From Escherichia coli (GTDB lineage Bacteria; Pseudomonadota; Gammaproteobacteria; Enterobacterales; Enterobacteriaceae): DNA of 64,000 bases. This document shows positions 53,859 to 56,905 of this stretch, piece after piece. The position numbers and the translations under genes are program-made. Under the pieces are notes generated by a model. The model was not told the DNA's origin, ran no database searches, and saw only the letters and a program-made list of their open reading frames with translations. Position 1 is the first letter of the stretch. Each line of letters opens with the position of its first letter. The DNA is taken from NCBI RefSeq assembly GCF_045037415.1, contig NZ_CP173438.1. The stretch is one strand, 5' to 3'.

Positions 53859-54485
53859 ATGGAGGTGACTATGATTGGTAACCAAAGCAACAAGGCTGAC
53901 GCCAGATGCCACCGGGAACGGAAAAGCAGTAACGAGGTCTTTGAATTTCTGGAGAAGAAGCTTTATCTGGGACGGGATACCCGGCAAAAACTGGCACTGA
54001 TTGCCCGGAAACTGACGGGAGCGGGTTTTAGCCCGGATAAATTCGCTGCGGAGAAAGCGGCAGATGTGCTGAGTGCCTGCGTGAACCACATGTTTAATGA
54101 CCTGCTCAATGAGGGAGAGCCAAACGGGATTTATAGGCCGGAGGAACACCCCATGATAGTCCCGGCCAGGTCCCCTAAGGCACTGGAAATCTATACTGTT
54201 TACCAGCTTGTAAAAGGTCGTTTTGACAAGCTTCATACGGGGGAGTCAGATCGTGAGAAATATGCTTCGGTAGCAGAAAAACTTAATGAGTATGGAATAT
54301 GGAAACCCCGGTTAAAACGACTCTCTGACGGTAAAGAATGGGCGCGTGAGGATGTTGCGTGGATGCTTCAGCCTGAAAATATCAATGCACAAATTAACAT
54401 CCAGAATCAAAAGTACGCGCGGTTGAGTGCTGAAGATGAAACTGAAACCGAGTCTGGCAACGCCTCAACTGCTAAAAACATCTGA
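53859..54485 (+). CDS. hypothetical protein
   Basis: 208-aa ORF divergent from alpA; acidic C-terminus; 3' end overlaps the recombinase gene on the opposite strand. Confidence 0.4.
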   Translation: MEVTMIGNQSNKADARCHRERKSSNEVFEFLEKKLYLGRDTRQKLALIARKLTGAGFSPDKFAAEKAADVLSACVNHMFNDLLNEGEPNGIYRPEEHPMIVPARSPKALEIYTVYQLVKGRFDKLHTGESDREKYASVAEKLNEYGIWKPRLKRLSDGKEWAREDVAWMLQPENINAQINIQNQKYARLSAEDETETESGNASTAKNI

Positions 54486-55416
54486 TGCGCTTGCTGGCAC
54501 TGATCTTCATAGTATCACCACGACAGTCATAGCGCGTCGTCGTGGATATGTCGCTGTGGCCTGCCAACTGGCGGACGGTATTGATATCCACGCCCTGCTC
54601 CAGCAAACGGGTGATGAAGGTGCGCCGCATATCATGCGGGGTAAAACGTGCTATACCTGCCGTTTGCTGTAACTCAGCCAGGATACCCGTTAACCCGGTC
54701 GTAGTCAGCGGTTGGCTTGCGACCTTACCACTGCGCTGAATTCGCCTAAACAACGCACTGTCAGCCTCGTCTGCGCCAACTTTCAGCCACGCACGAATAG
54801 CCTTGTCCACCGCATCCGCCACGTGAATTTCACGGTATTTACGCCCCTTCCCTTGCCTCACCGTCAGGATGCCGTTGTCATAGTCCCGGCGCTCAAGTTT
54901 AACCAGTTCCCCGGCCCGCAGGCCCGTTCCGCAAAGCATCAGCACAATGGCGACATCGCGACAGCGCCGTACAGATTGCGGATGCTGTTTTGCAGCCTGA
55001 ATCAGTACCCGGATTTCCTGCCTGCCCAGCGCCCTTCCCTTGCGCTGGACATCGCCGCTCACGCGCTTAACTGACCGGATACGTGCCAGCGTTTCGGCAT
55101 CCATGTAATTGAGGTTAAAGGCCGTCTGCGCTACGCCCCGGAGTGCTGACAGCGCCATGTTGACCGATGACACGGCGTAACCGTCATCCAGCAGTGCCGC
55201 GCGCACTTTGGCAACGGCGGCGTAGTTAAGTTGTTCCCACGGATAGTCTGCTGCATCCGCACCGTGTTTAAGTATGCTGGCGCTGCGGTTTAACAGGCTG
55301 GTGATACCTCGCCGTCCCGAGGGGGCCAGACCGACAATATACGCATCGAACACGGTGGTTTGCACCACCGGCACGACCTGACGCAACGCTGTCCTGCTCA
55401 TGCGCGTAACCCGCAA
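54472..55416 (-). CDS. tyrosine site-specific recombinase (phage-integrase family)
   Basis: 314-aa ORF with catalytic motifs (LMLCGTGLRAGEL, HDMRRTF, LAGHSDISTTTRYD). Confidence 0.85.
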   Translation of the reverse strand: MRVTRMSRTALRQVVPVVQTTVFDAYIVGLAPSGRRGITSLLNRSASILKHGADAADYPWEQLNYAAVAKVRAALLDDGYAVSSVNMALSALRGVAQTAFNLNYMDAETLARIRSVKRVSGDVQRKGRALGRQEIRVLIQAAKQHPQSVRRCRDVAIVLMLCGTGLRAGELVKLERRDYDNGILTVRQGKGRKYREIHVADAVDKAIRAWLKVGADEADSALFRRIQRSGKVASQPLTTTGLTGILAELQQTAGIARFTPHDMRRTFITRLLEQGVDINTVRQLAGHSDISTTTRYDCRGDTMKISASKRIRCF

Positions 55417-55447
55417 TAACGTACATTAAACCAAGTAACTTTCAGCA

Positions 55448-55918
55448 TCACACCAGTCCTCGCTCAGCCATCGACACCGTTTCAGTTCCTGCCACGATAA
55501 AGTGATCAAGTAACCGCACATCCAGTATTTCCAGCAGCTCCTGAAGCTTTTTGGTCAACTGGATGTCACACCGGCTGGGTTCAGGCTCGCCGCTGGGGTG
55601 ATTATGGACAAGGATGACGGCGGCGGCGTTATGTTTCAGCACACGCTTAATAACTTCACGGGGGTGAACGCTGACCGAGTTTAGCGTACCCCTGAACAGG
55701 ATTTCGCGGTGCAGCAGCTGATTATGATTATCGAGTAGGATGATGCCAAACTCTTCATGTTCAAGCGGTGCCAGCTCAACCATCACGCACCGTCGAACAT
55801 CATCAGGGGAACAGAGTTGAACCCCACGCTGGTAGTACCGGCTAATAATGTCACGCGCCTGGTCAAGGATACGGGTTTCACGCTGGGTAAACATGGTCAT
55901 GTCAGAACTCCCGTTCAA
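55448..55918 (-). CDS. RadC-like JAB/MPN-domain protein
   Basis: 156-aa ORF with the JAMM-like motif VHNHPSGEPEPSRCD. Confidence 0.8.
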   Translation of the reverse strand: MNGSSDMTMFTQRETRILDQARDIISRYYQRGVQLCSPDDVRRCVMVELAPLEHEEFGIILLDNHNQLLHREILFRGTLNSVSVHPREVIKRVLKHNAAAVILVHNHPSGEPEPSRCDIQLTKKLQELLEILDVRLLDHFIVAGTETVSMAERGLV

Positions 55919-56441
55919 TGAAGTAAATGGCGTCTGGAAACAGCTGGCGGCGGGTTACGCCAGTACGCAGGGAGAAAGCTTTACGGGGCATGGTGGTTCG
56001 CCCGTTGCTGTCGAAGAAGCAGAGCATTTCTTCGTCCATTTTGACCAGAAGGGACCAGTGAAACTGGTCGCTGAGCATAATCAGGCGAGAGTGGTCAGTG
56101 ACGTCAAGAAACCGCTGCATTTCCCTGAACAGCCGCCCGTCTGTTAACCCCCGCTTCCCTGCAAAGGGTCTGGTGATTTCAACCGGGAACTGGCGGCGGT
56201 AATGCCCTTTCTGCAACACCTGAGCTATTAACCAGTCTAAGCGGTCTTCTTCAATTCCTTCAGTCAGCCATTCATGCAAAGGCCAGCGCTGCTGATAAGT
56301 CTGAATAAGCCAGTTCATTAACGGGCGTCGTTTCACCCTGCCGTCATACAGCCAGCTCAGCATGTTAACCACGCAATAAGCACCGCAAAGACAGTCCAGT
56401 TCGCCCTGTTGAGACGCACGTATCCCTCTGTCAGTCGTCAC
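55902..56441 (-). CDS. papain-like (C39-like) cysteine peptidase domain protein
   Basis: 179-aa ORF with QGELDCLCGAYCVVNML (Q...C nucleophile context typical of C39/papain-fold peptidases) and a downstream His (HWSLL); overlaps the RadC-like gene by 17 bp. Confidence 0.5.
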   Translation of the reverse strand: MTTDRGIRASQQGELDCLCGAYCVVNMLSWLYDGRVKRRPLMNWLIQTYQQRWPLHEWLTEGIEEDRLDWLIAQVLQKGHYRRQFPVEITRPFAGKRGLTDGRLFREMQRFLDVTDHSRLIMLSDQFHWSLLVKMDEEMLCFFDSNGRTTMPRKAFSLRTGVTRRQLFPDAIYFIEREF

Positions 56442-56482
56442 AGATAATTCCCCATAAATTAGTGATGGTTAGTACAGGGGGA

Positions 56483-56905
56483 TTAGCTTTCCCAGAGAAC
56501 GGTAATGGTGTAGATGTTCATGCCGTGATACTGAATAAAGTTGGATTGCCAGAGTTCAAACAGCTCCCTTCCGGCGTTAACAGGCAGGTCACCAACATAA
56601 GCAAGAAAGACATATTGCTGACTCCAGCTGATATCAATTTCCTTTTCAAGTTCGGGGTATACCGTCCCCATATAACTGAAGTCGGTAATGTAATCAAAAT
56701 ACCATTCATCATTGCGTGAAATAATCCGTATTTCGACAGGATGGTAACCACCCTTTTCAGCGCTGTAACTCAGGTCTTTAAATAACAGACTGACGGCTGT
56801 AATTTTGGCTTTATGCGGCGGTGGATTTCCCGCTTCATTTAATATGATATTTATTAATTCCTGATCGACGGGCATAGCTAGCCCTTCCTGATGGACAATA
56901 TTCAT
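56483..56905 (-). CDS. hypothetical protein
   Basis: 140-aa ORF immediately upstream of the C39-like peptidase gene, same strand; no recognisable motif. Confidence 0.45.
   Translation of the reverse strand: MNIVHQEGLAMPVDQELINIILNEAGNPPPHKAKITAVSLLFKDLSYSAEKGGYHPVEIRIISRNDEWYFDYITDFSYMGTVYPELEKEIDISWSQQYVFLAYVGDLPVNAGRELFELWQSNFIQYHGMNIYTITVLWES

Follow-up and report, generated by a model that had tools for sequence, protein, structure and literature searches.

A predicted papain-fold cysteine hydrolase forms a gene pair with a short RadC-type protein in the backbone of AlpA-type genomic islands

Introduction

Which proteins are encoded by a compact group of four minus-strand open reading frames (ORFs) at positions 54472-56905 of a 64,000-nt stretch of Escherichia coli DNA (contig NZ_CP173438.1; the whole stretch is called the window below), and what do they do for the element that carries them? 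In the order of transcription, the ORFs encode a DUF2787 protein, a 179-aa protein that we name X, a short RadC-type JAB/MPN protein and an Xer-like tyrosine recombinase (Table 1). Here we report that X is a predicted papain-fold thiol hydrolase of an unnamed family, that X and RadC form a gene pair, and that the X module is part of the backbone of AlpA-type islands. We also weigh what the pair might do.

Results

The AlphaFold2 model of X, for which an alignment of 122 family members served as input, has a predicted local distance difference test score (pLDDT) of 95.1 and a predicted template modelling score (pTM) of 0.90, and its overall fold is similar to that of solved papain-like (clan CA) members. 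Structure prediction was one of the checks proposed in a first-pass annotation of this DNA, which had called X a C39-type peptidase and pointed to a Q...C motif; a papain-like fold was indeed found. In the model, the central helix (19-31) begins with Cys19, and His128 and Asp144 lie in the C-terminal beta-hairpin region. The order of residues is that of clan CA, namely Gln (oxyanion), Cys at the N-terminus of the central helix, His, and Asn/Asp. The stretch QGELDCLCGAYC of X is the most conserved part of the family (QGxLDxxCGxY). Across the 122 sequences, Q12, G13, N26, G62 and H128 are invariant, and L15, D16, C19, G20, Y22, W129, D144 and S145 are conserved in at least 90%. The Q...C motif is present, but the predicted nucleophile is Cys19, the cysteine of CG; Cys17 is unconserved, with G, S, N or C at position 17 in this alignment. 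On this model, X is predicted to be a minimal papain-fold thiol hydrolase, and it may be an active peptidase or isopeptidase.

X has no match in Pfam, NCBIfam, PHROGs or PADLOC, and PF03412 (Peptidase C39) does not match it even at E <= 10. Among the 122 family members, PF03412 matches none at E <= 0.001 and four at E <= 0.1. Because the Pfam scan of these members gives sub-threshold matches alone (C39 in four, Josephin in two, and ElaD/SseL, C57 and phytochelatin synthase in one each), X founds an unnamed family within the papain-like clan. Thus, the fold and the residue order behind the C39-type assignment were upheld, but C39 membership was not. When 1.84 billion representative proteins were searched with a profile, 722 clusters of X homologues passed E <= 1e-3; almost all of them hold stand-alone proteins about 175-185 aa long, and the homologues that carry source names (the 120 best named) are all called hypothetical. 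Among the structural neighbours of X, equally high scores are reached by C39-, staphopain-, ATG4- and UfSP-type proteases, and some neighbours are non-proteases (the phytochelatin-synthase-like Alr0975, and CtaG/BtrH). SENP8, a clan CE protease, was the sole near-significant match of the X profile in the Protein Data Bank (PDB), at E 0.006 with a deeper alignment and more weakly with the first, shallower one. This match consists of two half-motifs, HW..DS and Q..DCG.Y, in swapped order. Since the predicted fold of X aligns collinearly with clan CA enzymes, we read the match as a motif resemblance and rejected clan CE membership. It suggests a motif-level kinship between the clan CA-ordered X family and Ulp/SENP-type enzymes.

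The length of X differs between records. In the RefSeq record SK1144, annotated by the Prokaryotic Genome Annotation Pipeline (PGAP), X is given as 153 aa from an ATG at 56363 (WP_000954131.1), which removes Gln12 and the catalytic Cys19. Many NCBI entries of other Enterobacterales are also 153 aa long, and the 179-aa form is on record for E. coli. We judge from the sequences that the 179-aa form is the real one, because the QGxLDxxCGxY motif lies within about the first 20 residues of homologues down to 20% identity, the GTG start at 56441 is conserved in eight of eight relatives, a Shine-Dalgarno-like GGAG/GGGG motif precedes this start, and in codons 2-26 nonsynonymous polymorphism (pN) is far below synonymous polymorphism (pS), e.g., 0.087 versus 0.617. 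The 153-aa truncation may help explain why the X family stayed unnamed despite at least 722 sequence clusters. The 140-aa start of the first gene of the operon is backed by its DUF2787 homologues.

All four ORFs are genuine genes under purifying selection and not chance ORFs. The ratio of nonsynonymous to synonymous substitution rates (dN/dS) of X is 0.09-0.17. Of 5426 complete E. coli genomes, 595 have the 3-kb operon segment intact, in every case on the chromosome. About 89 E. coli genomes hold a version of the operon that is 90-95% identical, and in a similar number the match is restricted to p175, a gene of the neighbouring switch region described below; the latter genomes suggest a second E. 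coli island variant with different regulators. The tight packing of the four genes noted in the first-pass annotation stands, although two of its three spacings (42, 17 and 32) were off by one: with mechanical ORF starts (RadC at 55448-55918, 156 aa from TTG; recombinase at 54472-55416, 314 aa from TTG), the gaps on either side of the 17-bp overlap measure 41 bp (DUF2787 to X) and 31 bp (RadC to recombinase). The ATG starts of PGAP, which we judge likelier, place the beginning of RadC at 55900 and that of the recombinase at 55401, with 46 nt between these two genes. RadC then starts 1 nt past the stop codon of X (TGAcATG, ATG start).

The relation between X and its neighbours was surveyed by scanning one genome per species with a 21-sequence X alignment, which yielded 80 loci; ORFs were called in these loci and compared by phmmer and jackhmmer. 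Thirty-four gammaproteobacterial species from Enterobacterales, Aeromonas, Pasteurellaceae and Orbaceae are in the survey. RadC is directly downstream of X in 20 of them. The two genes have diverged in parallel; in one locus (L002), X is 41% and RadC 48% identical to the window proteins. Furthermore, a natural X-RadC fusion of 338 aa (P0132, at L101 2012-3028) contains both parts complete, an X domain at residues 5-172 and a short RadC at residues 199-336 that is 43% identical to the window RadC. The fusion was found in two independent assemblies (P0132 and P0394), and its operon consists of DUF2787, the X-RadC fusion, a PcfJ-like gene and an integrase. X and RadC are thus a gene pair, being adjacent, apparently translationally coupled, diverged together and fused in one natural protein. 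The first-pass annotation had regarded a peptidase upstream of RadC and a recombinase as unusual; instead, X followed by RadC is a recurrent core module.

The partner proteins belong to known families. The 140-aa protein, which had been listed as unknown, matches Pfam PF10980 (DUF2787) with E 8e-34, and the family profile matches PDB entry 2W56/2V1L (VC0508) with E 8e-37. Its AlphaFold2 model has a pLDDT of 94.3, and both the hidden Markov model and the fold place it in the family. The 140-aa protein therefore belongs to DUF2787 and is clearly homologous to VC0508, which is encoded in the Vibrio cholerae pandemic island VSP-II. The RadC-like protein and the tyrosine recombinase of the first-pass annotation were borne out by NCBIfam model matches. 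RadC scores 145.1 bits on TIGR00608 (cut-off 133.85), matches phrog_10276 with E 7e-35 and has an intact JAMM-type motif, H99-N-H101-x7-S109-x2-D112. It lacks the N-terminal helix-hairpin-helix (UPF0758_N) domain of the chromosomal YicR type, the TIGR00608 match covering just positions 77-211 of the 212 in the profile, and is the short mobile-element form. The recombinase matches the XerC, XerA and XerD models with E 5e-37 to 1e-27, all below the equivalog cut-offs, and is not an XerC or XerD equivalog (127.9 against 335.15 for XerC, 96.9 against 329.6 for XerD). It also matches the integrase family phrog_1 (E 1e-40), and the catalytic set is present (R162, K188, H256, R259, H282 and Y291).

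Where in the islands does the module lie? The order common to the 34 species is a regulatory switch, then [DUF2787] X [RadC] [DUF2787] [Xer], where brackets mark genes that vary, then a convergent gene, AlpA and further unknown genes. DUF2787 is adjacent to X in 23 species, both RadC and DUF2787 accompany X in 17, and RadC, DUF2787 and the recombinase occur together in 15. AlpA is found downstream of X in 33. An intact island of Edwardsiella piscicida (L098) has a P4-type integrase at its edge and its cargo (IS21 and a DEAD helicase) beyond the backbone, apart from X. The X module is island backbone, or core, and not cargo. A recombinase downstream of X is present in only 15 of the 34 species and is thus facultative, so co-regulation with excision, as proposed earlier, is not a defining property of the operon. 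An LRAT-family protein co-occurs with DUF2787 in Vibrio (PMC12409351) and could be an alternative partner of DUF2787 there. X is also found in a subfamily from Chloroflexi (Anaerolineales; L049-L094), where the neighbourhood is conserved and housekeeping-like. Judged from their sequences, the neighbours there are MBL-fold hydrolase-like, lipoamide dehydrogenase-like and amylase-like proteins; RadC, DUF2787, mobile-element genes and an adjacent regulator are absent from these loci. X was absent from 50,697 phage records and was found in just three large "plasmid" records and four of 2.9 million viral contigs. Because of this near-absence, we dropped the reading of X as a phage gene or a gene of a plasmid leading region.

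These neighbourhoods also bear on whether X is a C39 bacteriocin- or leader-processing peptidase, or the toxin of a toxin-antitoxin pair. Such a role is highly improbable. Unlike the C39 domains of ATP-binding cassette (ABC) exporters (ComA, PCAT1; PF03412), X is stand-alone and cytoplasmic, has its Gln seven residues before the Cys, and has no transporter or double-glycine leader substrate nearby. The annotated E. coli record shows no ABC transporter gene up to 20 kb away, and none was found in the 34 related loci. The neighbourhood has no double-glycine precursor and no antitoxin-like partner, X has no significant Pfam match, its gene is stably intact in the 595 E. coli genomes, and no toxin-antitoxin or PADLOC model matches. 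The toxin or maturation role suggested in the first-pass annotation finds no footing in these results.

How is the operon expressed? The spacer at 56906-57229 is 324 bp long and has a GC content of about 0.39-0.42, compared with 0.51-0.59 in the genes. In all 11 related islands that were checked, the spacer at the corresponding place is AT-rich, too (160-560 bp, GC 0.23-0.41). The first-pass annotation had placed a putative promoter in this AT-rich region, and a predicted sigma-70 promoter does lie inside it; a consensus scan gave 10 of 12 matches and an extended -10. Both hexamers align in eight of eight diverged islands (TTTGCA, TTTGCT, TTGCA, TTGCT, TTGAC or TTTAC; TATAAT, TAAAAT or TATACT). 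The number of promoter-like sites in the spacer region is not above chance by itself. Because the hexamers are conserved in all eight islands while the flanking spacer diverges, we predict that the operon has its own conserved sigma-70 promoter and is not transcribed by simple read-through from the regulator gene. No operator-like motif emerged from the spacer alignment or a repeat scan. An 18-nt inverted repeat (57159-57218) lies just past the stop codon of the 169-aa regulator gene upstream. A riboswitch or leader RNA was considered and dropped: the 5' leader has no Rfam family, and its folding gave no significant structure (z = -1.4). In a Serratia-like relative (L008), a 76-aa CbtA-toxin-like ORF (628-858, P0235) lies between the regulator and DUF2787, and one database entry is a 218-aa CbtA+DUF2787 protein; the CbtA-like ORF has no counterpart in the window spacer.

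In 33 of the 34 species, a regulator gene lies no more than 2 kb upstream of X, mostly on the same strand. Together with the recombinase that ends the operon in 15 species, this invites comparison with ICEBs1, where immR-immA-int encode repressor, protease and integrase. X, with or without RadC, would then be an ImmA-like anti-repressor that cleaves the island's own repressor on a signal and induces the island. The likeness is a regulator, one or more proteases and a tyrosine recombinase beside a divergent switch. However, the proteases here are papain-like and JAB proteins, and X is not an M78/ImmA-type protease as in ICEBs1. The regulator family is interchangeable (Mu c-like or XRE-type helix-turn-helix (HTH)) while X stays. 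In addition, it is Ner, and not the c-like gene, that DUF2787-X follow in Providencia, Proteus and Morganella. Between regulator and X stand the AT-rich spacer and a conserved promoter of its own, and the Chloroflexi homologues have no adjacent regulator. We consider an anti-repressor role quite unlikely.

The switch itself comes in two types: in one, a Ner-like gene and the gene of a c-like regulator diverge, and the other is an HTH gene of the XRE type. In the window, it consists of a 169-aa regulator gene and a divergent Ner/SfsB-like HTH gene (Table 1). The 169-aa regulator matches phrog_310 (E 1e-7) and the repressor family phrog_7148 (E 1e-5) weakly, at residues 27-98, and has no Pfam or NCBIfam match. 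The earlier description as a Mu c-like repressor is thus backed by the weak PHROG matches, but not by Pfam. In other islands, this gene is replaced by an XRE-type HTH gene. The Ner-like regulator is clearly recognisable: it matches NF007670 SfsB (E 1.5e-19, below cut-off) and the transcriptional repressor family phrog_769 (E 1.2e-29), and its homologues carry Pfam HTH_35. Directly after it on the plus strand, p175 (58121-58648, 175 aa) is among the most conserved backbone genes (E values between genera are as low as 1e-118), yet no Pfam, NCBIfam, PHROG or PADLOC family matches it. On the other side of the operon, homologues of the 208-aa p208 occupy the same position in related islands, and p208 had no match in the NCBIfam, PHROG and PADLOC scans.

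Table 1. Positions of the operon genes, the predicted promoter and adjacent backbone genes in the window
Feature	Coordinates	Strand	Description
DUF2787 protein	56483..56905	-	140 aa; operon gene 1; homologue of V. cholerae VSP-II VC0508
X	55902..56441	-	179 aa, GTG start; predicted papain-fold cysteine hydrolase, unnamed family; Gln12, Cys19, His128, Asp144
Short RadC-type JAB/MPN protein	55448..55900	-	150 aa from ATG; no helix-hairpin-helix domain at the N-terminus
Xer-like tyrosine recombinase	54472..55401	-	309 aa from ATG; last operon gene, facultative
Predicted sigma-70 promoter	57040..57069	-	TTTGCA, 18-nt spacer, TG-TATAAT; within spacer 56906-57229
Upstream regulator	57230..57739	-	169 aa; weakly Mu c/MuA-N-terminus-like; half of divergent switch
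Ner/SfsB-like HTH regulator	57840..58109	+	89 aa; divergent from 169-aa gene; other half of switch
p208	53859..54485	+	208-aa conserved backbone gene, convergent with operon
AlpA-family regulator	53451..53648	-	Opens next backbone operon; homologues carry Pfam Phage_AlpA

The window region is identical to the chromosomes of many E. coli strains, including O25b:H4-ST131. The island lies between ychF and dhaR and carries insertion sequence (IS) elements, a DUF2339/DUF3999 pair, an ABC-three-component system and retron Ec67. The local copy is a decayed, IS-ridden member of the integrative AlpA-type island family in ST131-type E. coli. By identity with the SK1144 record, the minus-strand region 60268-63783 holds a gene for a 628-aa hypothetical protein and two ABC-three-component genes (62156-63783), and the reverse transcriptase/endonuclease gene of retron Ec67 begins just beyond the end of the window. 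The surroundings of the operon are thus a defence-island setting. A P4-type integrase lies beside ychF on the AlpA side of the backbone (window 40843-52900), and ISEc24, IS91, other transposase remnants and frameshifted genes separate it from the backbone. In the intact Edwardsiella island, the integrase is on the Ner side. Because of this difference in side and the IS remnants between, the E. coli copy looks rearranged and decayed, and it may no longer be mobile.

Discussion

What might X and RadC do together? The explanation that we favour is an X-RadC enzyme pair that serves the island, most likely in counter-defence or establishment; arguing by analogy, we hold it tentatively and put it, as a whole, slightly below an even chance. 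X and RadC would act jointly, often together with DUF2787 as the third component; their target would be macromolecular, and the benefit would go to the island itself when it enters or is activated in a cell. X would supply a peptidase function and RadC a DNA- or substrate-directed function, by analogy with ArdC, whose peptidase part X would take by non-homologous displacement. The recombinase would be an add-on for recombination or resolution, outside the enzymatic module. We favour counter-defence or establishment because of the RadC-ArdC fusions, the action of ArdC, the presence of RadC in AlpA-type islands, and the lack of a defence-model match. Proteins in which a RadC JAB domain is joined to ArdC occur in other bacteria, and restriction enzymes have been proposed as substrates of the zincin peptidase domain of ArdC (PMC3239186). 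In recipient cells, ArdC overcomes restriction by hsdRMS (PMC7213743). In the AlpA-type defence islands of Pseudomonas, RadC belongs to the core genes (PMC12595487). When the 10 proteins from this region were compared with PADLOC-DB v2, no defence family matched at E <= 0.01. The recognisable defence cargo of the E. coli island, the ABC-three-component system and retron Ec67, lies apart from the operon.

The module resembles several described systems. As in ArdC and the RadC-ArdC fusions (PMC3239186), a RadC JAB domain is combined with a peptidase in a mobile element. However, X is a predicted papain-fold thiol enzyme and not a zincin, the N-terminal DNA-binding domain of ArdC is missing, and the elements here are islands and not conjugative plasmids; the likeness would be one of function by analogy only. 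Module 2 of VSP-II (VC0502-VC0510), to which no function has been assigned (PMC8248653, PMC12146696), also combines a DUF2787 protein, VC0508 (PDB 2W56/2V1L), with a RadC, VC0510; its VC0509 is a speculative candidate for an X homologue. The AlpA-type tmRNA islands of Pseudomonas that are moved by a jumbo phage share the backbone of integrase, AlpA, RadC and HTH genes with defence cargo (PMC12595487), and in gammaproteobacterial pipolins DUF2787 is a core gene beside the tyrosine recombinase (PMC11551731). In contrast to these two kinds of element, we saw no genes of the piPolB, YqaJ or inovirus Gp2-like kinds, and the X family is mentioned in neither paper.

Several points weigh against the favoured explanation. 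The survey was seeded with X, so that, outside E. coli, islands with the same backbone and without X would be missed. In 8 of the 34 species (Pasteurellaceae), X occurs with neither RadC nor DUF2787, and its housekeeping-like contexts in Chloroflexi imply that X can act alone and is not confined to mobile elements. The RadC-type JAB domain has been argued to be a nuclease and not a peptidase (PMC3239186). Any substrate named for X is putative, and the non-protease structural neighbours of X make a non-protein substrate possible. In that case, X would be an amidase or acyltransferase that depends on its thiol and whose substrate is an amide of the small-molecule, nucleotide-linked or cell-wall type. 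We regard this as improbable: X is cytoplasmic and minimal with no signal peptide evident, its close association with RadC and with mobile-element regulators speaks for a macromolecular target, and the proteases among its structural neighbours score just as well.

Finally, most islands have the operon on the switch's repressor side, a position that would also fit a gene for maintenance or defence in the resident state. The module could then be compared with rexAB or sie genes, with hydrolases that are triggered by phage and degrade a phage or host protein, leading to abortive infection or exclusion. Consistent with this, the predicted promoter looks constitutive, and the island holds the ABC-three-component system, retron Ec67 and the DUF2339/DUF3999 pair. 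In a Vibrio pangenome, DUF2787 genes belong to a co-occurrence cluster listed among those with predicted defence-system genes (PMC12409351), which also speaks for resident defence. The near-absence of X from phages and plasmids is neutral here. However, the module has no PADLOC match, contains no sensor or NTPase component, and occupies a fixed backbone position and not the variable cargo region. A resident-state defence or exclusion role is therefore unlikely in our view.

The favoured X-RadC pair can be extended into a bolder proposal, which we regard as doubtful. DUF2787, X and RadC would be an unrecognised three-component, two-hydrolase (thiol and zinc) core system of an extensive AlpA-type island family, possibly including VSP-II, that processes or destroys a protein target, e.g., a host restriction or defence component or a conjugate of the ubiquitin-like protein (Ubl) type, so that the island can establish itself. 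X has no sequence membership among the papain-fold proteases of ubiquitin and Ubl (ATG4, UfSP1/2, ZUFSP/Mug105, and the bacterial Josephin-type deubiquitinases and clippases PcJOS, BpJOS and PaJOS), and no Ubl, E1 or E2 gene was found in the island or the surveyed loci. RadC-type JAB is not known as an isopeptidase (PMC3239186).

The components of the operon belong to known superfamilies, and it is not categorically new; what is new is the papain-fold X family and its association with RadC. In the four profile libraries and the literature open to searching, we found no description of the X family, its pairing or fusion with RadC, or its fixed place in the backbone. Of the proteins without an assigned function, those of the RadC-type JAB kind are among the most widespread, both in the chromosomes of bacteria and in mobile elements. 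It has been debated whether they act as nucleases or as peptidases (PMC3239186), and a partner such as X, with easily tested chemistry, gives an experimental entry point to this question. In addition, the DUF2787 protein of the operon has its homologue VC0508 in VSP-II, the pandemic island of cholera, and module 2 of that island is without an assigned function (PMC12146696). If the three-component proposal is true, a RadC-type JAB protein would work in a proteolytic pathway, and this would settle what RadC does.

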